Origin: Promethearchaeota archaeon
GTDB taxonomy: Archaea > Asgardarchaeota > Lokiarchaeia > Sigyniarchaeales > Sigyniarchaeaceae
DNA length: 13,213 bases
Reading direction: 5' to 3'
Assembly: GCA_016932935.1 (NCBI GenBank)
Contig: JAFGBX010000051.1
Location: 1 to 13,213, forward strand
This document shows positions 351 through 11,985 of this stretch, piece after piece. A model generated the notes under the pieces. The model was given only the letters and a program-made list of their open reading frames with translations, was not told where the DNA came from and searched no databases. Numbering within the stretch: the first letter of the stretch is position 1; the number at the start of each line of letters is the position of its first letter. A program made the translations under genes and the position numbers.

Positions 351-1658
351 TCAGCACAAGGGGAGGATCTCTGAGCCGCGGCGCACGACCTTCACGCTCG
401 TGCTGCGCCCCGGCGCGACTTGACGCCCCCCAGCGACGAGGTCATGGACGAGTGCTTGGAAGTCGCGTGATCGGACGATGTCGAAGCCGTGCTTGCCGAA
501 GGTCTTCTTGTCGAGGGTGTCCGAGACGACATGCACGTGGCAATGCGCCATCACCTCGCCGACGTGTGCCAAATGCGACGCTTCCAGCAAATGATTGGGT
601 GGTATCGCGCCGCCCTTTACCATCTCGTCGATCTCTGCGGGCGGGTGGTACCCGTGCTCGAGCAAGACGTCGGCATGGGCGGGAGACCAGCCCTCCGTGC
701 ACGGCGCGAGCAAGACGAGGTGCCCGCCGGAGCGAACGAAACTCTTGCAGTTGCATGCGGCCTTCGCGCACAGCCACCAGTCGGCATGCTCGGGAACAGC
801 GTCGGCGACGACGACGTCCGCGGGGTTGCCGACCGGCACGCCGTAGACCTCCCTCGCGACCGCGGCGCCCTGGTATTGGGCGGCGACCGGGTCGCCGAGG
901 CACAACGAGACGACGCGGGAGGCCCCGTCGAGCACCGTGTTCACCAGGAGGTCGATCGGCCGGTGCGCGCCGACCTCGTTGATCGCGTCGCGCACCGGGT
1001 TCCTCGGCACGCCGAGGATCCGCTCGGACGGGTAGGCGGCGCTGGCGTAGTGGATGCGGTTCATCGTGTCCTGGCACGTGAGGCCGGGCAGGAGGATCTT
1101 GTACCCGCCCGAGTACCCGCACACGCGGTGCGGCACGATGTTGCCCAGCCCGACGAGGAACGTGCCCGGCTCGCACGCGACGCGGGCGAGCTTGAGGTCG
1201 TACCCGCCCCGCGCCTTCCCGAAGTTGGCGAGGCCAGACTCGTCCGACCACTCGTGGTCGAGGACGGGCACCTCGTCCACGACGGCCGACCCGAACTTCT
1301 CCCGCTTCTCCTCGCGGGTCATGCGGCGGTGGCTCCCGCCTGCGACGACGATCGAGACGGGCTTTCCAACGGACTTCGCAGCGCGGATGACCGGGGGGAG
1401 CAGCGTTTTGACTGGCGTGACGCGCGTCTGGTCGTCGGACGCGACGAGGATCCTGGCCGACTTCTCCAGCCTTCCACGCTGCTTGGCGAGCTCAGAGGCG
1501 ATGAGCCTCGTGATGGCTGCCACCCCGTCGTGCTTGGCCTTCTCCGGGACTGGCGAGGCGGTGGCGGGAGATACCTCCTCGGCGTGCACGCCCGCGGGGA
1601 GGTCGAGCGGCAATTCCCCGATGCCCCACTTGATGTCGTAATGGTCGTGAGATGCCAT
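351..1658 (-). CDS. larA: LarA-family protein (lactate racemase N-terminal domain / DUF2088; nickel-pincer-cofactor-dependent 2-hydroxyacid racemase/epimerase family).
   Basis: The ORF 351..1808 carries the LarA hallmark motifs: SDDQTRVTP (cf. the DHTRP loop), VCGYSGGYK (the Lys that tethers the NPN cofactor, ~residue 187 counted from MASHD) and conserved His residues near 110 and ~200. The length from MASHDHYDIKWG is 435 aa, typical of LarA. Start set at ATG 1658 (MASHD...). The 50 upstream codons to 1808 are Arg-rich and unlikely to be coding. Confidence 0.8.
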   Translation of the reverse strand: MASHDHYDIKWGIGELPLDLPAGVHAEEVSPATASPVPEKAKHDGVAAITRLIASELAKQRGRLEKSARILVASDDQTRVTPVKTLLPPVIRAAKSVGKPVSIVVAGGSHRRMTREEKREKFGSAVVDEVPVLDHEWSDESGLANFGKARGGYDLKLARVACEPGTFLVGLGNIVPHRVCGYSGGYKILLPGLTCQDTMNRIHYASAAYPSERILGVPRNPVRDAINEVGAHRPIDLLVNTVLDGASRVVSLCLGDPVAAQYQGAAVAREVYGVPVGNPADVVVADAVPEHADWWLCAKAACNCKSFVRSGGHLVLLAPCTEGWSPAHADVLLEHGYHPPAEIDEMVKGGAIPPNHLLEASHLAHVGEVMAHCHVHVVSDTLDKKTFGKHGFDIVRSRDFQALVHDLVAGGRQVAPGRSTSVKVVRRGSEILPLC

Positions 1659-1691
1659 GACCAATTCACGGGGCCGCCGGGAGAAAAGGTT

Positions 1692-1731
1692 GGCCGACCG
1701 TGCGCGCAACCGTGCACGAGTACGGTTGGCC
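1692..1731 (-). other. Imperfect stem-loop (10-bp stem, one G-U/mismatch, ~20-nt loop) in the putative 5' leader of the LarA-like gene.
   Basis: ggccgaccgt (1692-1701) pairs with acggttggcc (1722-1731). It lies 34-73 nt upstream of the LarA ATG at 1658, between the gene and the AT-rich promoter island at 1860-2050. Confidence 0.3.
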
Positions 1732-1951
1732 ATGAGACACCGCTCATTAACCCCGCGCCTCGTGCTAACAAGCCATTTGAATGCCCAATGATTCATATGC
1801 ATCCACATTCACGGGAAGATTGGCGTAGCGGCGTTTCGGTCGTTCTCCAACTGAAGATACTTGGTCGCGTCGGATCTCTTTTATTTGGTTTAACAGATTT
1901 TTGATCAAAAGCAATGTGCGTGGATTGTACCAGGCGCACGACGTTTCCACC

Positions 1952-2052: not shown

Positions 2053-3741
2053 ATGGCAATGAATCTTGAAGGTAAGAAGGTCTACAGGCGGACCAAGTCG
2101 GTCTGCCCAGAATGCTTGAAGCAGATCGACGCGAACCTCGTTCTCGACGATCTAGATGGGAATCCGATGGTTCTCATGAGGAAGAAATGCAGCGAGCACG
2201 GCTACTTCGAGGACATCATCAGCCGGAACCCGCCAGAATACGAGAGGAACCAGAAATACTACCACGACTACGTGACCATCGAGAACAAGGACAACGTGCA
2301 CGACACGGGGAAGGGTTGCCCGCACAACTGCGGTATGTGCGCCGAGCATAAATCATCACCATGCATCGTCTTGATCGACATCACGAACCGGTGCAACCTG
2401 GCGTGCCCGATCTGCTTCGCCAACGCGTCGGCGAAGGGCTACCTCGTTGAGCCGACCATGGAGGAACTGCGCATGATCTTGCAGCACTTCCGGGACATCA
2501 AGCCGATCCCGCCCGTCTTGTTGCAGATATCCGGCGGCGAGCCCACGGTTCGGGACGATCTCGTGGACTTCATCCGAATGGGCAAGGAGATGGGCTTCGT
2601 CCAGATCATGCTCACGACGAACGGCCTCAAGCTCGCGGCCCGCAACGGCCCCCAATACATCAAGGAGCTGCACGAGGCCGGTATGGGCGCTATTTACCTG
2701 AGCTTCGACTCTGCCGACGATCCCGAGGTGTACAAGAAGGTTCGCGGCGTCAATTTGCTCGCCCAGAAGAAGCGCGTGATCGAGAACTGCCGCAAGGCGG
2801 GTTACGTCGGCGTGACGCTCGTGCCGACGATCGCACGGGGCATGAACGACCACCAGGTAGGGCCGATCATGCAGTACGCGATGGACAACCACGACGTCGT
2901 CACCGGCGTCGTGTTCCAGCCCGTGGCTCTCTGCGGCCGCGTCGACAACGAGCAGATCCGCGAGCTCCGGTACACGACCAGCGACCTCACGCGGGAGCTG
3001 GCGCGCGTCACGAAGCGCCAGGACACATATATCTTCCCCATCCCCGCCATCTCGAACATGACCAAGCTCATGGGCTGGTACGACTTCGCGCCCCAGTTCT
3101 CGATGGCGTCGCACCCCGATTGCGGCTTCGCGACGATTATGATTCCCGACAAAGAGGGCCGCTGGCACGGCATCGAGGAATGGTTCGAAGCGGACGGTTT
3201 CATCAAGTGGACCGACCACGTCTGGGGGATGGTTGAGAAGGGCGAGTGGCCCAACATGACCGACAAGTTCATCGCACCGCTGGCGAAGCTGTTCGGGGAG
3301 CAAGTCGGGAACGTGATCAACCAGGCCTCGGACTTCGCGTACCGAAAGGCCATCAAGGCCTATTACATGGCCGGCGCCATGCGTTACATCAAGGGCTTCG
3401 ACGGGCCCGTCGAGGAGTTCATCCCCATGGTCTTGAACCCCAACATCACGACATCATCACAGTTCTTCGAGGCGGGCAAGTCCATGCTCGTGAGCTCGAT
3501 GCACTTCCAGGACGTCTACAACTTCGACATCGAGCGCGTCCAGCGCTGCCTCGTGCACTACGGCACGATCGATCCCGACCACCCGGGCAAGGTGCTTCAG
3601 GTGCCCTTCTGCGCGATGAACTCGATCCACCGGGAGGCCATCGAGACCAAGATCGCCAAGGCCAAGTACAAGGTCAACGCGACCGAGATCAACGCGAAGG
3701 CGCGAGAGTTCCTCGAGAAGGAAGTCGTCGGCACCCAGTAA
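2053..3741 (+). CDS. Radical SAM enzyme, tetraether lipid synthase (Tes / GDGT-MAS)-like, paralog 1 (562 aa).
   Basis: The canonical radical-SAM motif CNLACPIC (CX3CX2C) is followed by SGGEPT (a glycine-rich SAM-binding motif). A second upstream CX3CX2C (CPHNCGMC) and an N-terminal CPEC...CSEH rubredoxin/Zn-ribbon-like Cys/His cluster are present, plus a ~300 aa C-terminal domain. Size and multi-cluster layout match what I recall of the Tes/GDGT-MAS family, but the family assignment is made by eye only. High-GC codon usage. ~75% identical to the 5333..7027 protein. Confidence 0.8.
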   Translation: MAMNLEGKKVYRRTKSVCPECLKQIDANLVLDDLDGNPMVLMRKKCSEHGYFEDIISRNPPEYERNQKYYHDYVTIENKDNVHDTGKGCPHNCGMCAEHKSSPCIVLIDITNRCNLACPICFANASAKGYLVEPTMEELRMILQHFRDIKPIPPVLLQISGGEPTVRDDLVDFIRMGKEMGFVQIMLTTNGLKLAARNGPQYIKELHEAGMGAIYLSFDSADDPEVYKKVRGVNLLAQKKRVIENCRKAGYVGVTLVPTIARGMNDHQVGPIMQYAMDNHDVVTGVVFQPVALCGRVDNEQIRELRYTTSDLTRELARVTKRQDTYIFPIPAISNMTKLMGWYDFAPQFSMASHPDCGFATIMIPDKEGRWHGIEEWFEADGFIKWTDHVWGMVEKGEWPNMTDKFIAPLAKLFGEQVGNVINQASDFAYRKAIKAYYMAGAMRYIKGFDGPVEEFIPMVLNPNITTSSQFFEAGKSMLVSSMHFQDVYNFDIERVQRCLVHYGTIDPDHPGKVLQVPFCAMNSIHREAIETKIAKAKYKVNATEINAKAREFLEKEVVGTQ

Positions 3742-5332: not shown

Positions 5333-7027
5333 TCAATTCCCGACTTCCTTCTCGAGGAACTCCTTGGCCTTGGCAGTGATCTCGTTCGCGTCGAGCTTGA
5401 CGTTCTGAACAGCGATCCTCTTCTCGACGTTCTCGCGGTGGATGCTGTTGAAGGCGCAGAATGGCACCTGCAGCACGTCGCCGGGGCGGTCGGGATCCAT
5501 CATACCATAATGGACGAGGCAGCGCTGGACGCGCTCGATGTCGAAGTTATAGACGTCCTGGAAGTGCATACTCGAGATCAAGAGGTTGTTGCCGTGTTCA
5601 AAGAAGCTCGCTGCCGTTTCGAGCCCTGGGCTGAGCATGATGGGGATGAAGTCGGAAACCGGCCCGCTGATGCCCTTCAAGTAACGCATGGCACCGCCCA
5701 TGAAGTAGGCCTTGATCGCCTTGCGGTACGCGAAGTCCGAGGCCTGGTTGATCACGTTCCCGACCTTTTCCCCGAATAACTTCGCCAGCGGCCCGATCAA
5801 CTTCTCGGAGAAAGTGGGCCACTGATTCTTGCATACGAAATCGTCCCAAACCTTGTCTCCCCACTTCAATAAGCCGTCCACATCGAACCAGTCCTCCACG
5901 CGCATCCATTTACCCGTCTTGGTATCGATTGACATGACCGTGGCAAACCCGCAGTCGGGGTGCGAGGCCATAGTGAACTGGGACGAGTAATCGTACCAGG
6001 CGATCAGCTTCGTGAGGTTGCTCGTGGCGGGGATCGGGTAGATGTAATTGTTCGTGATGCCCACCGCCTCGCCGATGGCTTTGGAGAGGTCGCTGGTCGT
6101 GTACCGGAGCTCGCGGATCTGCTCGTTGTCGATGCGGCCGCAGAGCGACACGGGCTGGAACACGACGCCCGAGACCACGTCACGGTTCGCCTTCGCGAAC
6201 TCCATGATCGGCCCGACCTGGTGGTCGCTCACGCCCTTGGCGATCGTGGGGACGAGCATGACGCCCTTGAAACCGGCTTTGCGGCAGTTCTCGATCACGC
6301 GCTTCTTCTGGGGGAGCAAGTTGACGCCCCTCGCCTTCCTATACACCTCGGGATCGTCGGCAGAGTCGAAGCTCAGGTAAATAGCGTTGAGGCCGGCAGC
6401 CATCAGATCCTTTATGTATTGCGGGCCGTTGCGGGCCGCGAGCTTGAGGCCGTTCGTCGTGAGCATGATCTCGACGAAGCCCAGCTCCTTGCCCATGCGG
6501 ACGATCTCGACGAAATCGTCGCGCACGGTGGGCTCGCCGCCGGAGAGCTGGAGTAACACGGGAGGGATCGGCTTGATGCTCCGGAAGTGGGTCATGATCG
6601 TGCGCAGCTCGTCCAGCGTCGGTTCCACGACGTATCCCTTGGCGGAAGCGTTGGCGAAGCAGATCGGGCACGCCAGGTTGCACCGGTTCGTGACGTCGAT
6701 CAAGGCGATGCAGGGCGACGACTTGTGCGCGTCGCACATACCGCACTCGTGGGGGCAGTTTTTCCCTGAGCGCTCCCCGTGCTTCTTGTTCTCGATCGTG
6801 CAATAATCATGGTAATATTGCTGGTTGCGCTCGTATTCTTGCGGGTTCCGGCTGATGATGTCCTCGAAGTACCCGTGCTCGCTGCACTTCTTCCTCATGA
6901 GCACGGCGTCCTTCCCCTCGAGCTCGTCGAGCACGAGGTTCGCGTCGATCTGCTTCAAGCACTCGGGGCAAACGGACTTGGTACGCCGGTACAGTTTCTT
7001 GCCTTCCAGGTTGGGTTCCATGGTCAT
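5333..7027 (-). CDS. Radical SAM enzyme, tetraether lipid synthase (Tes / GDGT-MAS)-like, paralog 2. 564 aa from ATG 7027, or 562 aa from ATG 7021.
   Basis: Same architecture as paralog 1: CPEC...CSEH, CPHECGMC, CNLACPIC and SGGEPT motifs. It is alignable to paralog 1 over the full length without gaps of note, at roughly 75% identity. ATG 7021 (MEPNLEGKK) has a GGAAGG/AAGGA SD-like motif 6-7 nt upstream, so the true start may be 7021. Confidence 0.8.
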   Translation of the reverse strand: MTMEPNLEGKKLYRRTKSVCPECLKQIDANLVLDELEGKDAVLMRKKCSEHGYFEDIISRNPQEYERNQQYYHDYCTIENKKHGERSGKNCPHECGMCDAHKSSPCIALIDVTNRCNLACPICFANASAKGYVVEPTLDELRTIMTHFRSIKPIPPVLLQLSGGEPTVRDDFVEIVRMGKELGFVEIMLTTNGLKLAARNGPQYIKDLMAAGLNAIYLSFDSADDPEVYRKARGVNLLPQKKRVIENCRKAGFKGVMLVPTIAKGVSDHQVGPIMEFAKANRDVVSGVVFQPVSLCGRIDNEQIRELRYTTSDLSKAIGEAVGITNNYIYPIPATSNLTKLIAWYDYSSQFTMASHPDCGFATVMSIDTKTGKWMRVEDWFDVDGLLKWGDKVWDDFVCKNQWPTFSEKLIGPLAKLFGEKVGNVINQASDFAYRKAIKAYFMGGAMRYLKGISGPVSDFIPIMLSPGLETAASFFEHGNNLLISSMHFQDVYNFDIERVQRCLVHYGMMDPDRPGDVLQVPFCAFNSIHRENVEKRIAVQNVKLDANEITAKAKEFLEKEVGN

Positions 7028-7268
7028 CCTTCCATGTTGGAGGTGGCGGGTTAATAGGAAAGCGCCGGTCTCTTAATAAACCGCCGCCAGATCTTCCAAT
7101 GTTTATATATAGATGGATAGTGAGATTTTAAGCCTTCCTCTCCGACGGCTCTCGTGCATCCAACACCGCAGCATCCCCGTGTCCAAACGAACCGTGTCGT
7201 TCACCAGTCGGGTTTCGGGATTCCCGCACGCAAGAACCTTTTAGTGATCCCGTGACCGCTATGGGGTC

Positions 7269-7913
7269 ATGGTGAACATTGTTTTGTTCGGCCCGCCAGG
7301 CGCAGGGAAGGGGACACTGGCCGAGATCATCAAGCGATACAGCAAGATCGTCCACATAAGCACCGGAGACCTCTTCAGGGAGAACGTGAAGAGCAGTACG
7401 CCGATCGGCAAGGAAGCCAAGAAGTACATGGACGAGGGGAAGCTAGTGCCGGATTCCGTCGTCATCGGCATGGTGAAGGAGCGGCTGGCCAGGGACGACG
7501 TCAAGAAGGACGGCTTCATGCTCGACGGCTTCCCGCGCACGCTGGATCAAGCAAAGGCGCTCGACGGGGTCACCAGGCTCGACACGGTCGCCGTGCTCGA
7601 CATCGACAAGAAGTCGCTGCGGGAGCGGATCCTCGGCAGGTACAACTGCCCGAAATGCAACCGCATCTACAACATCTTCAACGACAGGCTTAAGCCGAAG
7701 ATGGAAGGTCAGTGCGACGAGTGCAAGGTCGCGCTCACGCACCGTGCTGATGACAACGAAGAAACGTTCGAGAAGCGGTGGAAGGCCTACGAGGAACAGT
7801 CCACCGACGCGCTGGAGTATTACGAGGAGCGAGCGGGGCTCGTCAAGCACGTCGACAGCAACAAGATACTGGCCCTCACGGAGAAGGACGTCAAGGGCAT
7901 GTTTGGCCTATAG
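7269..7913 (+). CDS. adk: Adenylate kinase, long bacterial-type with a Cys4 zinc-binding LID domain.
   Basis: The P-loop GPPGAGKG is present, along with LDGFPRT (the AMP-binding region) and the LID motif CPKC...CDEC. The length is 214 aa. A GTG at 7272 would give the canonical MNIVLFGPPGAGKG N-terminus, so the start is 7269 or 7272. Confidence 0.9.
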   Translation: MVNIVLFGPPGAGKGTLAEIIKRYSKIVHISTGDLFRENVKSSTPIGKEAKKYMDEGKLVPDSVVIGMVKERLARDDVKKDGFMLDGFPRTLDQAKALDGVTRLDTVAVLDIDKKSLRERILGRYNCPKCNRIYNIFNDRLKPKMEGQCDECKVALTHRADDNEETFEKRWKAYEEQSTDALEYYEERAGLVKHVDSNKILALTEKDVKGMFGL

Positions 7914-7918
7914 AATCC

Positions 7919-7930
7919 ACGCGCGCGTGA
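7919..7930. terminator. Perfect 12-bp GC palindrome CACGCGCGCGTG between convergent adk and the PH-like gene. Possible bidirectional terminator hairpin.
   Basis: Read directly at 7919-7930, six nucleotides after the adk stop. No T-run follows it. Confidence 0.3.
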
Positions 7931-7978
7931 TTGGGACGAGGCATCTTGAGCCCCAGGTCACAGACCTCGGTTCCCGTT

Positions 7979-8539
7979 TCAATTGATGAGCACTGCCGGT
8001 GCACTCGTGGCGTGGTCGAAGGCGGCTTGCACCGGCATCAGTAGGCAGATCGCCGCCATGATGCCAATGACCAGCAAGACCTCCCTGTCCCTGGCTTCAT
8101 CGATCACGCTGGCCTTTATTTCACGAGAATTCTTTTCGATCTCAGCGATAGAAATCCCGCCTCTTCGGATGATCAAGCGCCTGGGGAATCCCTCTACCAT
8201 TATCTGCATGATGTCGGATCCGATCGCGCTCTCGTACTCGTAGGCATAATCGAAGCCGTCCGCCTTCCGGTTGACGATCCCGAATATCGCAAGGCCTCCC
8301 TCTCCATCGAGAGCGGCCCGCCTCGGCACGAGGATGCGGCAATGCTGGTCGCGGTCGCTCGTGGCCTCGAGGACGAGCGCGACCTCGTGCCGCGAGTTCA
8401 TCACGAATGACGACATCCCCCTCTGGTCTAGCTCCACCCGGATACTGCCCGCCAGCATCCCGTCGCTGTTTTCCAGCAAATACGCTTCGGCACGTTTGTC
8501 GTACCTGCACTTGAAGAACCAGCCCTTTTTTATGGCCAT
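7979..8539 (-). CDS. PH-domain-like protein with a C-terminal transmembrane anchor (tail-anchored). Function unknown.
   Basis: ATG 8539 has a strong SD (AAGGAGG, 8-nt spacer). The N-terminus MAIKKGWFFKCRYDKRAEAYLLENSDGMLAGSIRVELDQ...FVMNSRHEVALV resembles the PH/bPH fold signature (KKGWhhK ... hxhxx). The single C-terminal hydrophobic helix is LLVIGIMAAICLLMPV. The upstream 41 codons of the 8662 ORF lie in an AT-rich island and are excluded. Confidence 0.55.
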   Translation of the reverse strand: MAIKKGWFFKCRYDKRAEAYLLENSDGMLAGSIRVELDQRGMSSFVMNSRHEVALVLEATSDRDQHCRILVPRRAALDGEGGLAIFGIVNRKADGFDYAYEYESAIGSDIMQIMVEGFPRRLIIRRGGISIAEIEKNSREIKASVIDEARDREVLLVIGIMAAICLLMPVQAAFDHATSAPAVLIN

Positions 8540-8808
8540 CGGATCCGCCTCCTTCCAACTTGTTCCTCCATGAGAATCCTCACAGAACCTTATGCTATGA
8601 ACATACGACCGCGACAACAATGTTCCTACTGAATCTATATACTCCCCACTTCGAATCATCAAGATTGCAGTAAGATTTCATGCCGCCGTGCAATAACCTT
8701 CTGCGCATGATATCCAAGGATTCTGAGGCGGTTCTTGGCTGTTGAGGATGCCATCTCTTTTTTTGATGCGCGGATGCCCTCGGGCCATCATACTCCCGCC
8801 CGCCTGCC

Positions 8809-9759
8809 TCAACCGGCGCGGTCGTCCTTCGCGCCGAGGGCCGCCTTGTCGGCGCCCTCCAGCTTCTTGACGGAGCTCTTGTAGAGATCGGGAAGCTTCA
8901 AGGGCTCCGTGAAGCCACCGCGCTCGAACAGCTTCCAGGCCTCGAGTTTCGCGACGGCGTCCAACTCGGCGTCGCTCCTGATCCTGCCCGGCCTCTCCTC
9001 AATGGCCTCCTCACCGGTCGCATACAAGTGCGGGTTTTCCTGGACGTCCTTCACCCAGCGGCGCAACGAGGCCCCGATGGCCGCCCAGTTGAGGAAATTT
9101 GAGAAGAGGTTCTTGATCGCTGCCTGGTCCTTGAACAGGCCGTCGAACGGCGGGTTGAACGCGGCCAGATCCGTATTGCCGTCGAACCGACCGGCCCGCT
9201 TCCGTTCGTCCTTGGGGACGAGCTCGTCGCCCGGAAGGATGCAGTTGCTCCCCGCCGTGAACAGTGGCGACTCGTACCCCGTCGGGCCGGCGTAGGTTCT
9301 TTCGTACTCGTCGATCTTGGATCCGTTCGATCCACCGCCGCCCCGCCTATGTGGTTTCCAGGATGAAGGCGTGGATCGCCTGGCGCGCTGCTTGTTCCTG
9401 AACCCGGTGGGGCTCGGGTAGTCGTCCTCGCCGCTAGCCCCGACGGGTATGCCCATGAAAGACTTGCGCTCCCCGCCGAGGTAGACGCCGCAATGCGGGC
9501 ACCGCATCCCAACGCGGACGCGGCTCGGCAGAACCCGGCCACAGCCGCCGCACGTCCTCGTCGACCACGCGAGGCCGGGTATGCCCCGGAAGCTGCCGTC
9601 GTTGCACGCAATCATGCCGATGATGATGGCCGCGATGATGCCGTAGTAGATGAGGTCGTCGAAGAAGAACAAGGGGTTCGCGAAGGAAAGAACCAGGAGC
9701 GCCGTGGCGAGGATGGAGCAGATGATCACGAGCGTCCGCTTTGTTGGATCCATTGGCAT
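8809..9759 (-). CDS. Membrane-anchored zinc-ribbon protein with a disordered Gly/Arg-rich linker and a ~150 aa C-terminal domain of unknown function.
   Basis: Two N-terminal TM helices (LVIICSILATALLVLSF; LIYYGIIAAIIIGMIA) are followed by a C-x2-C-x16-C-x2-C zinc ribbon (CGGCGRVLPSRVRVGMRCPHCG), a low-complexity RRGGGGSNG linker and a C-terminal domain. Start is ATG 9759 (MPMDPTKR) or 9753. An AT-rich TATA-like island lies upstream at 9780-9860. Confidence 0.55.
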   Translation of the reverse strand: MPMDPTKRTLVIICSILATALLVLSFANPLFFFDDLIYYGIIAAIIIGMIACNDGSFRGIPGLAWSTRTCGGCGRVLPSRVRVGMRCPHCGVYLGGERKSFMGIPVGASGEDDYPSPTGFRNKQRARRSTPSSWKPHRRGGGGSNGSKIDEYERTYAGPTGYESPLFTAGSNCILPGDELVPKDERKRAGRFDGNTDLAAFNPPFDGLFKDQAAIKNLFSNFLNWAAIGASLRRWVKDVQENPHLYATGEEAIEERPGRIRSDAELDAVAKLEAWKLFERGGFTEPLKLPDLYKSSVKKLEGADKAALGAKDDRAG

Positions 9760-9892
9760 GGTGATCTCACGAACATCTGTTGGAAGGTGAATGACCACGA
9801 CCTTCGATTCAGTGATCGAGATATAGATGCCACGGGAGAATATTTAAAATGGTTTCATCCAGAAACGGCGGCATGGCGCCACCGAGCCGTGC

Positions 9893-10543
9893 TCACACCC
9901 TGCCCGGCAAGAAATAGCGTGTCCCGTCCTTGTAAGACACGTCCTTGCGGAGCAGCCCGGTTCGGAGCAGGTGACTGAGTACCCTCGCTAGGCGGACATC
10001 TGCCCAGTGCAGGGTTATCTTCAGCTCGGCCTCGCTCATGAACTCCTTGCCCTTGAATAGCCCCAGCACGGTTGCCCCATCCATGTACGCCTCGGATTGT
10101 TTGATCGCGAGGTAATGCTCCCCGTCCTGGTGGATCTCGTCGAAGGGCTTGTCCTTGATCTTGCAAGCCTTCCGGATGTGGTCTATCGAAACGAGGGCTT
10201 TGAGCGAGCTGCTCCCGAAGTCCTTGAGTATCGCAGGTAAGGCCAGGATGCCCCCCGTCGAGCCGATGGCTGACTCGAGGATAGCCTTGATTCTCAAAGC
10301 GAGGAGATCGATGCGGGGCTCCACGGTTCCTGGCGCGAGGATCTCGGAATACGAGTCCTTGGGTATGACCTTCACGTAGTTGTCGGTCGATGAAATGACG
10401 ATCGCCCTGTCTCCCTTGTTCAGGGAGAACTCGGAATCGGCCCTGACGAGATCCAACGTGCCAGCCTCGTGGCGAACCATGCCGTTCCCCCGAGCCTGGT
10501 TCCACAAGTCCACGGTCACGACAGCACCGACGGGCACCTTCAT
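9893..10543 (-). CDS. NfeD-like OB-fold domain protein (no TM segment) fused to C-terminal winged-helix (wHTH, TrmB/MarR-like) domain(s).
   Basis: ATG 10543 has a GAGGTG SD-like motif 11 nt upstream and lies 53 nt after the flotillin stop. The N-terminal ~65 aa (GAVVTVDL...VRHEAGTLDLVRADSEFSLNKGDRAIVISSTDNYVKVIP) matches the NfeD C-terminal beta-barrel pattern (V.V.GE.W.A.S-..I..GE.V.V....L.V). The C-terminal MSEAELKITLHWADVRLARVLSHLLRTGLLRKDVSYKDGTRYFLPG is a classic wHTH with wing. A second WH-like segment (ILALPAILKDFGSSSLKALVSID...GEHYLAIK) precedes it. Confidence 0.6.
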   Translation of the reverse strand: MKVPVGAVVTVDLWNQARGNGMVRHEAGTLDLVRADSEFSLNKGDRAIVISSTDNYVKVIPKDSYSEILAPGTVEPRIDLLALRIKAILESAIGSTGGILALPAILKDFGSSSLKALVSIDHIRKACKIKDKPFDEIHQDGEHYLAIKQSEAYMDGATVLGLFKGKEFMSEAELKITLHWADVRLARVLSHLLRTGLLRKDVSYKDGTRYFLPGRV

Positions 10544-10596
10544 CGATCGCACACCTCGAAAAAGAGAAAGAGGATGACGCAAAAGAAGCTATCGCA

Positions 10597-11880
10597 TCAC
10601 CTGCCCGACGCCGCGGCCTGGGCGGTCTTCGTGGCAAGCCCGACCTTGGCGATAAGCTCGGAAAGGCCGCCCTGGAGCAGCCCGGACTGAAGCAGCGCAT
10701 CGATCTTCGGCAAGAAGTTACCGAGGAAGTTGCCGTCCGAGTTCCCATTACCACCCGAGGGCAGATAGATGATCTTGTTGTTCGGCCCGACTGCCTTTGC
10801 TATCTGCTCCGCGGAATCGACTTGTGCCTTGGCGAGGAGTTCGAGGATCTTCATCTGCGCCGTCGTCTCGTTGTATTGCTTCATCGCCTCGGCCTTCTGC
10901 CGGATGGCATCAGCCTCAGCGATGCCCCTGAGGCGGATGCCCTCGGCCTCCGCCTCGAGCTTGAGCTTGACAGCATTACTGTCCGCCTGGGCCTTGATCG
11001 ACACTGCCTCCGAATCCGCCTTGGCGAGCATTATCTTCTTGTTGCGCTCGATCTCGGCCATCTTCTCCGCGTTCTGCTGTTCGACCTTCAAGCGCTTCTC
11101 CTCGAGCACGAGCTTCTGCTCCGACGCGAGCTTCTCACGCTCGTAGTGGGCGACCTCCTCCTCCTTCTTCATCTGCTCGCTCTTAACCTTGGCGTCCTTC
11201 TCCTTCTCGACCTCGATCTTGACCGCCTCGGAGTCGTGGGTGGCCTCGGAGATACGCGCGTTGCGTCGGAGCTCGGCGATCTTGACCTTCTCGAGCGAAG
11301 CTATGACGTCGGATCCCTCGATGTCCCGGATATTCTTGATGTCGAAAATCACGGGCGAGAGGCCGAGCTTGGACAGCGCGTCTTGCACCATCGCATAGAT
11401 GGCTTTTTCGATCTCCTCCCGGTTCTTCATGATCTCGAGGATGTTGCGCTCCATCGCCACGGAGCGTGCCGCCGACATAACCGTGTCCTCGACGACCTTC
11501 GAGATCGTGCTGTGGTCGATTGTCGTGAGGGTCGCTGCTGACTTTGGCGGGTCGGTCACCTGCACCTTGACCGATATCTCGACACCGAAGGGCAGCTTGT
11601 CCACGTCGTGCAGCTTGATGAGCTGGGGCTCGATGTCAAGCACGTGTTTCGGGATGATGGTTCGCCCGTGGAAGACCCGCAGGAACACGTACCTGCCCGA
11701 GCCATCATACTGAGTGATCCTTTTACCATGGCTGACGACGTGCACCTCGTTAAAAGGCACGACGACCAGCGACTTAAAATAAATGCCGACGACGATCATG
11801 GCGGCGATCCCGCCGATGACACATGCAAGGATCCCGCCGACGAGGTTGAAGTCCACCTGGAGATGCTGTGCTTGGATCAT
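10597..11880 (-). CDS. floT: Flotillin (SPFH/band-7 family, FloT-like) membrane scaffold protein.
   Basis: An N-terminal TM helix (ILACVIGGIAAMIVVGIYF) is followed by an SPFH domain and a long Glu/Ala/Lys-rich coiled-coil with EA repeats (AEAEGIRLRGIAEADAIRQKAEAMK) typical of flotillins. A GAGGA SD-like motif lies 6 nt upstream of ATG 11880. Confidence 0.85.
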   Translation of the reverse strand: MIQAQHLQVDFNLVGGILACVIGGIAAMIVVGIYFKSLVVVPFNEVHVVSHGKRITQYDGSGRYVFLRVFHGRTIIPKHVLDIEPQLIKLHDVDKLPFGVEISVKVQVTDPPKSAATLTTIDHSTISKVVEDTVMSAARSVAMERNILEIMKNREEIEKAIYAMVQDALSKLGLSPVIFDIKNIRDIEGSDVIASLEKVKIAELRRNARISEATHDSEAVKIEVEKEKDAKVKSEQMKKEEEVAHYEREKLASEQKLVLEEKRLKVEQQNAEKMAEIERNKKIMLAKADSEAVSIKAQADSNAVKLKLEAEAEGIRLRGIAEADAIRQKAEAMKQYNETTAQMKILELLAKAQVDSAEQIAKAVGPNNKIIYLPSGGNGNSDGNFLGNFLPKIDALLQSGLLQGGLSELIAKVGLATKTAQAAASGR

Positions 11881-11967: not shown

Positions 11968-11985
11968 GTGAAACATATGTTTCAC
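11968..11985. promoter_or_regulatory. Perfect 18-bp palindrome GTGAAACATATGTTTCAC in the divergent promoter region between the flotillin cluster and the WH/Pro-rich gene. Candidate operator for a dimeric regulator.
   Basis: Read directly. It is 88 nt upstream of the flotillin ATG at 11880 and 127 nt upstream of ATG 12112, inside the AT-rich island. Confidence 0.4.

Follow-up and report, generated by a model that had tools for sequence, protein, structure and literature searches.

The window, that is, the whole stretch of 13,213 nucleotides analysed here from a Lokiarchaeota MAG contig, carries on its minus strand a flotillin-like SPFH (Band_7) gene (positions 10597..11880; 427 aa, ATG start) followed by a smaller gene, hereafter the partner gene (9893..10543; ATG start), whose product is annotated in GenBank as hypothetical (MBN2150301.1) and consists of 216 aa plus stop, rather than the 217 aa counted initially. 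As described in the initial annotation, the SPFH gene comes first and the NfeD-like gene follows downstream, the spacer (10544..10596, minus strand) measuring exactly 53 nt as read from the sequence. This order had been regarded as non-canonical; it is not unusual in itself, and in E. coli qmcA-ybbJ, too, the SPFH gene precedes its partner. The partner start was assigned to the ATG at 10543 and not to an upstream TTG because all homologues open with M(V)KVP, and a GAGGTG motif (10552-10557, minus strand) is located 8 nt 5' of this ATG. Neither an Rfam nor a tRNA scan of the window gave a match.

Starting from its N-terminus, the SPFH protein comprises a TM segment, the SPFH domain, a long coiled coil, and a conserved C-terminal tail. 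The membrane anchor (residues about 13-37; 11770..11844, minus strand) has a 19-residue Kyte-Doolittle mean of 2.66 at residues 13-31, and K/R residues flank it only on the C-terminal side, so that, following the positive-inside rule, the SPFH domain is predicted to face the cytoplasm. This domain (residues 40-214; 11239..11763, minus strand) matches Pfam PF01145 with an E-value of 3.9e-19 over profile positions 2-173 of 176, and is followed, as in flotillins, by the long coiled-coil "flotillin" region. The best sequence relatives in the PDB are human flotillin-1 (E about 1e-15, matching residues 198-390), flotillin-2, and E. coli QmcA. The NCBIfam FloT model gave a partial match to residues 222-392 (E 1.6e-21), scoring 76.9 bits versus a cutoff of 700; the protein is therefore flotillin-like and not a FloT orthologue or equivalog.

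The AlphaFold2 model of the partner (pLDDT 91.2, pTM 0.83), a check that had been proposed together with the initial annotation, places a β-barrel (residues 8-61) and a helix (78-96) ahead of two winged helices, wH1 (99-147) and wH2 (153-211). Along the gene, all on the minus strand, these elements define an N-terminal NfeD-type OB-fold barrel (residues 1-66; 10346..10543; strands 8-15, 20-25, 32-36, 46-52, and 57-61), a linker and helix (residues 67-96; 10256..10345), wH1 (residues 97-150; 10094..10255), which opens with an invariant TGGI motif common to Vps22, and wH2 (residues 151-216; 9896..10093), with invariant D155, W180, R184, and G207. As initially suggested, the partner is a soluble protein without a TM helix: its maximal 19-residue Kyte-Doolittle mean is 1.58, well below that of the SPFH anchor, and the corresponding segment lies in the helix/wH1 core of the model. 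With the same 19-residue window, no TM segment was detected in any of 25 family members, the maximum being at most 1.58 in 24 of them and 1.75 in the highest.

According to the model, the N-terminal barrel is a five-stranded OB fold of the NfeD type; its invariant residues include D12-L13-W14, T29, S37, and K43. Its best six structural matches are all NfeD domains, which also show the highest identities (16-24%), and generic OB folds rank below them. At the sequence level, Pfam NfeD (PF01957) had no match at E<=10 among 12 N-terminal domains of the family, and a PDB profile search with this domain returned no NfeD and an Sm protein alone, at E 0.35; the weak sequence matches of the barrel are Sm/Hfq and eIF-1A barrels, and no N-terminal-only matches outside the family were found in a search of 1.84 billion proteins. 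The NfeD assignment consequently rests on fold and gene context, since the sequence-level tests gave no NfeD match.

NfeD proteins are usually described as membrane proteins, and pairing with an SPFH gene is their defining genomic signature. The partner resembles the NfeD/STOPP proteins (B. subtilis YuaF, P. horikoshii PH0471 and PH1510, E. coli YbbJ, and S. aureus NfeD) in being encoded next to an SPFH gene, but differs from them in the absence of TM helices, of a ClpP-type protease domain, and of a Pfam NfeD sequence match, in the N-terminal position of the OB domain, which in NfeD is C-terminal and follows the TM anchor, and in the fusion of this domain to an ESCRT-II-type module. Cryo-EM and mutagenesis demonstrated that the NfeD OB fold binds the flotillin FloA directly (PMC11222466), and QmcA-YbbJ assembles as 26 heterodimers (structure 8z5g; PMC13086221). 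If the proposed interactions are real, a soluble protein, too, can use the NfeD OB domain as a portable "flotillin-docking" module, a broader view than the current one of NfeD as a membrane protein.

The C-terminal part had been assigned to winged helix-turn-helix domains of TrmB/MarR type. Two winged helices are indeed present in the model, but their sequences place them in the EAP30/Vps22 (ESCRT-II) family. Pfam EAP30 (PF04157) scored 25.0 bits (E 1.9e-5) with the partner, just below the gathering cutoff of 26.8 and through the C-terminal part of the model alone (positions 92-215 of 219), and matched 23 of the 25 family members, with a best E-value of 1.9e-10. A phmmer comparison of the partner with human SNF8 gave E 9e-6, while the family profile searched against the PDB retrieved only ESCRT-II chains, namely human SNF8 (5e-10), yeast Vps22 (9.6e-9), and Vps36 (0.016), and no transcription factor. 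Against a canonical Asgard Vps22 outgroup of nine proteins, all full-length EAP30, hhalign aligned residues 76-216 with 99.7% probability (E 1.7e-25). The top Foldseek matches of the partner were 3cuq_A, 2zme_A/B, 3cuq_B, and 1u5t_A, the top four being ESCRT-II Vps22 and Vps36; model and structural matches agree on the arrangement typical of Vps22/EAP30, a helix followed by a tandem winged-helix core.

Canonical Asgard Vps22 (asCOG cog.002769), like Vps22/SNF8/EAP30 in general, shares with the partner this helix and tandem core, with clear sequence homology. Motifs common to both include TGGI, D, W..R..R, and D.SY..G.(R/K)YYFP, and the wH2 wing carries RKD-SY-G-RY(Y/F) in the partner family as well as in canonical Vps22. 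D201, an acidic residue of the wing (Asp in 18 of the 25 members, Glu in 3) that is present also in canonical Vps22, aligns with the Asp of the SNF8 "WLD" motif and, by ungapped extension, with D214 of yeast Vps22, to which Hierro and co-workers are said to have attributed, in 2004, a role in Vps25 binding; this residue is the one hint that the partner might bind Vps25 or enter an ESCRT-II complex. The most conserved residues of wH2 coincide with those of canonical Vps22, which suggests, and no more than suggests, that a common partner surface has been kept and not a new contact acquired. The linker/helix region is equivalent to the final helix in the N-terminal region of Vps22; the alignment with Asgard Vps22 by hhalign starts at residues 75-76. 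The remainder of that region, the helical (steadiness-box-like) domain, is absent, since residues 1-66 form the OB barrel and the hhalign and Pfam matches begin at about 76-81. In Asgard Vps22, the steadiness-box/N-terminal helical region provides the tie to ESCRT-I (PMC10936438), and vps25, ESCRT-III, vps4, or ESCRT-I genes are typical genomic neighbours (PMC9192718, PMC10936438), whereas the partner has this region swapped for the barrel and its gene adjoins a flotillin gene, not vps23, vps28, vps25, ESCRT-III, or vps4. The partner family also forms a separate clade, full-length members matching at E 1e-52 or better and canonical Vps22 at 1e-14 or worse, and represents a second, previously unremarked Vps22 paralogue of Asgard archaea.

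Eukaryotic Vps36 is likewise a Vps22 paralogue with an N-terminal β-rich domain in front of a helix and two winged helices, and the tandem winged helices of the partner superpose best on Vps36 (Foldseek, TM 0.44). However, the N-terminal domain of Vps36 is a membrane-targeting GLUE/PH domain (split PH), unrelated to the NfeD OB barrel, and by sequence the partner family is far closer to Vps22 than to Vps36 (the PDB E-values given above). Any equivalence of the partner with Vps36 would be a functional analogy only.

A gene-order survey, also proposed initially, revealed an SPFH gene directly upstream of the partner gene and on the same strand, adjacent and co-directional as for NfeD, in 17 of 18 related loci (30-75% partner identity) from at least nine lineages, the sole exception being cut off by a contig end; the pair is therefore no chance adjacency. 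Elsewhere, depending on the lineage, 3 to 118 nt separate the two genes, and the SPFH orthologues adjoining partner genes are 55-88% identical. About 20 clusters with the OB-Vps22 architecture were found, and all named sources are Asgard archaea; the archaeal (Asgard) origin of the DNA had not been recognised in the initial annotation. Pattern-based scans, which under-sample the partner family, yielded only two further loci in metagenomes and one locus in genome contigs. All-vs-all BLAST of the ORFs from eight neighbourhoods identified the SPFH and partner genes as the only common families, the remaining clusters, considered as a possible third conserved gene, being antisense shadows or limited to close relatives. 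A TM plus zinc-ribbon protein is encoded downstream of the pair in the window (8809-9798), and a protein of similar type lies upstream in locus L004; the two showed no significant similarity. No vps25, ESCRT-III, vps4, or ESCRT-I genes occur within 5-10 kb of the pair in eight loci, and an AAA ATPase near the pair in locus L015 is PAN-like, not Vps4. Overall, SPFH and partner genes form a conserved module of Asgard archaea.

The interpretation we favour, with a probability of roughly 0.55, is that the partner is a soluble adaptor docked on a flotillin cage and displaying a Vps22-type protein-interaction module. The SPFH protein, with its single N-terminal membrane anchor, probably forms a cage or basket on the cytoplasmic membrane face, like other SPFH proteins. 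The OB barrel would dock the partner on this oligomer, possibly with one copy per subunit, and the flotillin scaffold would thereby be coated with Vps22-type modules acting as protein-protein adaptors, which might self-associate or bind Vps22, Vps25, or ESCRT-III-type partners. As the ESCRT-I-linking N-terminal region of Vps22 is replaced by a flotillin-binding domain, the flotillin platform would stand in for ESCRT-I as the upstream membrane cue. SPFH links to ESCRT-type machinery exist elsewhere, and B. subtilis YdjI-PspA and the euryarchaeal "Meth_adaptin" ESCRT loci offer precedents for an SPFH scaffold as an ESCRT-type membrane platform (PMC10936438; PMC7619361). There, the SPFH gene is part of a PspA or Vps4/ESCRT-III locus and an NfeD-Vps22 fusion is not involved, whereas in the present module a domain fusion encodes the link and no ESCRT-III or Vps4 gene is nearby. 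A bolder version, which we regard as speculative and rather doubtful, is that in Lokiarchaeia-related Asgards flotillin cages are an ESCRT platform and the chimera a flotillin-tethered ESCRT-II subunit, a functional analogue of Vps36 that would pair with Vps22 and/or Vps25 and might nucleate ESCRT-III at flotillin microdomains.

No known prokaryotes are more closely related to eukaryotes than the Asgard archaea, and eukaryotic flotillins intersect with ESCRT-dependent sorting. How the Asgard ESCRT machinery is targeted to membranes is the question on which the module bears. The partner points to a previously undescribed link between flotillins and ESCRT sorting: in agreement with the initial impression that the fusion was new, no description of it and no relevant paper on NfeD with Asgard, ESCRT-II, or winged helix was found in the literature searched, and the text and supplements of Makarova et al. 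(2024) mention neither the fusion nor MBN2150301. Asgard archaea have been reported to possess just one Vps22/36-like gene and to lack Vps36 (PMC9192718); orthologues of ESCRT-0 have not been identified in them either (PMC10936438). A flotillin-tethered ESCRT-II subunit, if such it is, would supply the "as-yet undiscovered" partner of Vps22 that has been considered for the ESCRT-II of Asgards (PMC9192718) and would be a prokaryotic forerunner of flotillin-linked endosomal sorting. If the proposed interactions are real, they constitute a testable physical link from flotillin microdomains to ESCRT-II-type adaptors in the lineage ancestral to eukaryotes; the SPFH and partner proteins are small and modelled with high confidence, and the hypothesis is thus directly testable.

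Other explanations of the same architecture were weighed against the adaptor. The partner could be a structural substitute for NfeD that braces the flotillin oligomer or promotes its formation, the Vps22-derived winged helices having been co-opted for dimerisation or cross-bracing where NfeD usually has its membrane anchor, with no ESCRT recruitment at all. This proposal, which we hold to be possible though unlikely, is in line with the oligomerisation-promoting role put forward for NfeD proteins (PMC13086221; PMC11222466), with the homodimerisation of several Asgard Vps22 proteins (PMC9192718), and with the fact that no ESCRT gene adjoins the pair in any locus examined, but it fits less well with the coincidence of the top conserved wH2 residues with those of canonical Vps22, although this is only suggestive. 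Far less credible is a generic N-terminal barrel of OB/Sm/PRC-like type, comparable to that of CdvA or of the ESCRT-associated barrel protein of Thermoplasmata, which would make the partner an ordinary ESCRT-II variant and its SPFH adjacency devoid of mechanistic meaning. Such a barrel would agree with the missing NfeD signal at the sequence level, with the weak matches to Sm/Hfq and eIF-1A, and with the beta-barrel proteins of some archaeal ESCRT loci (PMC10936438). Against it, all six best structural matches are NfeD domains ahead of every generic OB fold, and the SPFH pairing persists across at least nine lineages while all other neighbours change, which is the genomic signature of NfeD.

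The earlier proposal that the winged helices bind DNA, coupling flotillin status to transcription or autoregulating the operon through an upstream palindrome, appears improbable. The partner does contain the winged-helix fold of DNA-binding regulators; nevertheless, it has no significant sequence relation to ArsR/MarR/TrmB transcription factors, and its tandem arrangement and motifs are those of EAP30/Vps22. TrmB, MarR, and ArsR Pfam models had no match at E<=0.01 in the 25 family members, no such regulator appeared at E<=10 in the profile search of the PDB, which returned ESCRT-II chains only, and a single marginal match to HTH_60 (0.0075) was the only one to HTH families among these members. 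In the characterised ESCRT-II complex, winged-helix domains make protein-protein contacts, and because EAP30 domains have this function there, both DNA coupling and autoregulation lose their basis; judged from sequence relationships, DNA binding by the partner is unlikely, though the conserved palindrome upstream leaves it a small probability. The palindrome itself, noted initially, is confirmed by exact search as a perfect 18-bp repeat with arms of 9 nt, GTGAAACATATGTTTCAC (11968-11985), its centre lying 96 nt 5' of the SPFH start codon, with about 0.05 such palindromes being expected by chance in 13 kb. It could be a target of some other regulator or of the basal promoter machinery, and its core was not found in more distant AT-rich lineages, which still keep the SPFH-partner pair. 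Bacterial-type promoter and terminator scans of the window, whose models are not applicable to archaea, showed no excess over shuffled controls. Only one copy of the core AACATATGTT, exact or nearly so, lies near the gene in the window and in each of the loci L001 and L007, starting at -101, -101 (with 1 mismatch), and -108, respectively, and CATATGTTT is invariant in the three-way alignment of these sequences, which makes the palindrome a candidate operator or core-promoter element.

The partner is encoded on the minus strand at positions 9893-10543 (216 aa), exactly 53 nt downstream of the SPFH gene on the same strand (10597-11880, 427 aa), which confirms the gap and the succession of a floT-like and an NfeD-like gene described in the initial annotation. 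The reversed gene order regarded there as a special feature is not special in itself, as qmcA likewise precedes ybbJ in E. coli. The start of the partner was placed at the ATG at 10543 rather than at an upstream TTG because all 24 homologues begin with M(V)KVP; the sequence GAGGTG lies 8 nt ahead of this codon. The protein corresponds to GenBank entry MBN2150301.1 (JW839_02530), annotated as 'hypothetical' in a 'Candidatus Lokiarchaeota' metagenome-assembled genome, of which the window makes up one complete contig of 13,213 bp; the DNA is accordingly of Asgard-archaeal and not of bacterial origin. Plus-strand ORFs over the gene pair are rich in leucine and arginine and had no independent support; they were dismissed as antisense shadows of the kind typically seen in GC-rich DNA, and Rfam and tRNA scans of the whole window returned no matches.

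The SPFH protein contains a Band_7/SPFH domain (residues 40-214, Pfam E 3.9e-19), preceded by a single strongly hydrophobic N-terminal segment (residues 13-37, Kyte-Doolittle 2.66) and followed by a long coiled-coil region. Basic residues are confined to the part that follows the hydrophobic segment, so the positive-inside rule would predict a cytoplasmic SPFH domain. In the PDB, the protein is closest in sequence to human flotillin-1 (E about 1e-15, residues 198-390), flotillin-2 and QmcA of E. coli. NCBIfam FloT gave only a partial match (76.9 bits against a cutoff of 700), so that 'flotillin-like SPFH protein' is accurate and the earlier name floT is not.

The gene pair is real and conserved. 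Among all 18 retrievable loci, rechecked by tblastn, an SPFH gene (424-444 aa) lies directly upstream of the partner homologue, on the same strand and at a distance of 3-118 nt, in 17; in the sole exception (locus L015) the contig ends 118 nt upstream of the partner homologue. The adjacency first noticed in this window recurs across at least nine lineages, and all organism-named sources are Asgard (Lokiarchaeota, Sigynarchaeota or Promethearchaeota, all Promethearchaeati). Partner homologues are 30-75% identical to that of the window, and the orthologous SPFH proteins are better conserved (55-88% identity). According to an all-vs-all comparison, the SPFH gene and the partner are the only genes common to the neighbourhoods, and no ESCRT-I, -II, -III or Vps4 genes were found within 5-10 kb of the pair in the examined loci. 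Arf/Ras-type small GTPase genes occur within 10 kb of the pair in four of seven lineages, immediately upstream of the SPFH gene in L012, and in the lineage of L014, L015 and L009 the pair is followed directly by a bona fide actin gene (Pfam Actin, E 1e-131) in convergent orientation. These GTPase and actin genes (L004 482-1078, L007 18278-18841, L012 68-403, L014 837-2158, L015 908-2053 and L009 3856-5001) are consistent with an Asgard origin and may occur there only because Asgard genomes contain many of them.

An AlphaFold2 model of the partner, built with a 12-sequence alignment, was confident (mean pLDDT 91.2, pTM 0.83) and comprises a five-stranded barrel (residues 8-61) with a linker after it, a helix (residues 78-96) and two winged helices, wH1 (residues 99-147) and wH2 (residues 153-211). 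As initially proposed, the protein lacks a TM helix, as do all 25 members of the family. The NfeD-type OB-fold postulated for the N-terminal segment is upheld by structure but not by sequence: the barrel matched the NfeD structures of B. subtilis YuaF (2k14), P. horikoshii 1510-C (3wwv) and PH0471 (2exd), E. coli YbbJ in the QmcA-YbbJ SPFH-NfeD cryo-EM complex (8z5g_B) and MTH693 (2k5h), with scores of 8.5, 8.1, 7.6, 6.5 and 6.3, respectively, but had no Pfam NfeD match at E<=10. A PDB profile search with the barrel gave an Sm protein as its sole match (E 0.35), and weak matches to Hfq and eIF-1A were also seen. NfeD proteins share operons with their SPFH partners, and the present protein resembles them in being encoded with an SPFH gene and in its NfeD-type OB; it departs from them in three defining features, having no membrane anchor, an OB that is not C-terminal and no NfeD profile match.

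The two C-terminal winged helices are likewise present, but they belong to the EAP30/Vps22 type and not, as previously suggested, to the TrmB/MarR type. The only significant Pfam match of the partner is EAP30/Vps36 (PF04157; E 1.9e-5, model positions 92-215 of 219), which at 25.0 bits is marginally below the gathering score of 26.8; EAP30 is matched by 23 of the 25 family members, and TrmB, MarR or ArsR by none. Searching the PDB with phmmer retrieved human SNF8/Vps22 only, the 25-member family profile matched SNF8 (5e-10), yeast Vps22 (9.6e-9) and Vps36 (0.016) and no transcription factor, and the best four Foldseek matches were ESCRT-II Vps22 and Vps36 chains. A profile search of 1.84 billion representative proteins yielded a first tier of about 20 full-length proteins (206-244 aa, profile positions 1-214, E 1e-52 or better) and, past a sharp gap, a second tier of ~240-aa proteins matching only positions 77-213 (E 1e-14 and weaker). 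The latter, from Odin-, Sif- and Ranarchaeia, are canonical Asgard Vps22, with full-length EAP30 in 9 of 9 (best 6e-26). The two tiers were aligned by hhalign over residues 76-216 (99.7% probability, E 1.7e-25), and the motifs TGGI, D, W..R..R and D.SY..G.(R/K)YYFP are common to the partner family and canonical Asgard Vps22. The partner is homologous to Vps22, from which it differs in lacking both the Vps22 N-terminal domain and a genomic association with other ESCRT genes. Canonical Vps22 likewise conserves the residues that vary least in wH2 (W180, R184, R187 and the acidic wing residue D201). D201 corresponds in the alignment to the Asp of SNF8 'WLD' and, on ungapped extension, to D214 of yeast Vps22, which Hierro et al. 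in 2004 reportedly found to form a salt bridge with Vps25 R83; a comparable contact may be made by D201. The same tandem module, with longer and different N-terminal regions, was detected in an odinarchaeial protein (P0039, 299 aa) and in P0050-P0061 (315-601 aa); Asgard proteins seem to join it to a variety of N-terminal domains.

In S. aureus the cytosolic OB fold of NfeD binds the flotillin FloA directly, as established by cryo-EM and mutagenesis (PMC11222466), and in the E. coli QmcA-YbbJ complex 26 heterodimers make up a cage (PMC13086221). Within ESCRT-II, the subunits Vps22, Vps36 and Vps25 use their tandem winged helices as protein-interaction modules (PMC10936438). Asgard Vps22 associates with itself and with ESCRT-I and works together with Vps25, which in turn contacts ESCRT-IIIB (PMC9192718). 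Canonical Asgard Vps22 carries a steadiness-box-like helical domain, tied to ESCRT-I, ahead of its winged helices (PMC10936438), and it is exactly this region that the OB barrel replaces in the partner family. Because an SPFH-binding-type OB takes the place of the ESCRT-I-linked region, we read the partner as a probable soluble adaptor: its OB would dock it on the cytoplasmic flotillin assembly, displaying the Vps22-type module as a binding platform, possibly in many copies, and the flotillin scaffold would stand in for ESCRT-I as the upstream membrane cue. Domain identities and gene pairing are established; the OB docking, the membrane topology and any recruitment of ESCRT proteins are inferred. 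We assign the adaptor model as a whole a probability of 0.55, and consider an actual coupling of the pair to ESCRT-II or ESCRT-III rather doubtful. The winged-helix module might instead merely dimerise or brace an NfeD-like cofactor with no ESCRT link, an unlikely reading that would agree with the lack of neighbouring ESCRT genes.

Considerably less probable is that the winged helices bind DNA, as in the DNA-coupling or autoregulator role first envisaged, although winged helices share a generic fold, this region is mildly basic (family median pI about 9) and the SPFH gene is preceded, at 11968-11985, by a perfect 18-bp palindrome, GTGAAACATATGTTTCAC. The palindrome core AACATATGTT is located at -101 from the SPFH start in the window, at -101 in L001 (one mismatch) and at -108 in L007 (about 8561-8570 in both L001 and L007), with no further exact or near-exact copy near the gene in any of these three lineages, where partner identity is just 54-71%; a second conserved block, CGAACA(T/C)C, follows ~45 nt downstream of the core. 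However, the core was not found in AT-rich lineages that retain the pair, and the palindrome, a possible operator, could just as well function as a core promoter element or be bound by an unrelated regulator. Sequence comparison gives the DNA-binding model no support, leaving a transcription-factor role without basis.

The most thorough archaeal ESCRT survey lists as Asgard ESCRT-II variants a steadiness-box Vps22, variants of Vps25 and cog.002441, and the sole SPFH link it describes is that of the euryarchaeal 'Meth_adaptin' loci; its text and available supplements contain no mention of an NfeD/OB-Vps22 fusion or of MBN2150301 (PMC10936438). According to PMC9192718, Asgard genomes have a single Vps22/36-like gene. 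Full-text literature searches for NfeD together with Asgard, ESCRT-II or 'winged helix' returned nothing relevant, in keeping with the earlier impression of an undescribed architecture. No description having been found in these sources, we regard the pair as a novel domain architecture and a novel conserved two-gene module assembled from known parts. Its significance lies in an ESCRT-II-type module, not a transcription factor, that is presumably tethered to flotillin in Asgard archaea.

A divergent gene running off the contig end (12112-13213, plus strand) encodes a protein without Pfam match, in which a K/E-rich N-terminus is combined with a short helical segment (IPINRIAKRVREEAEEAVLAVLEEMIIGGLIKARL) and a long low-complexity tail rich in Pro and Ala; L001 has a 570-aa homologue at the same position (6684-8396, minus strand). 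The next gene downstream of the pair (8809-9798, minus strand), with a TATA-like TTTAAATATT ahead of it, encodes a 329-aa protein for which two membrane helices are predicted and which also has a CxxC...CxxC zinc ribbon and a long, polar tail; L001 has a syntenic counterpart (312 aa). Other lineages have unrelated TM or zinc-ribbon proteins beside the pair, such as one with a weak, sub-threshold MARVEL match in L004 (7960-8457) and an Elf1-like protein in L007 (7833-8438), with no significant sequence similarity among these proteins. Ordinary housekeeping functions seem likely for a LarA-like protein (351-1808, minus strand; E 8e-33 for the N-terminal domain of lactate racemase) and for an adenylate kinase of bacterial type with a zinc-binding lid (7269-7913, plus strand). 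Two paralogous radical-SAM proteins of ~560 aa (2053-3741, plus strand; 5333-7027, minus strand) with an HMPTM N-terminal zinc ribbon, also present in two copies in L001, are similar to the pterin methyltransferase of methanopterin biosynthesis, a cofactor chemistry that looks unexpected for a Lokiarchaeota-type genome. Finally, a 227-aa protein (7979-8662, minus strand) is without family match; L001 carries a tandem pair of 186-aa paralogues at the equivalent position.
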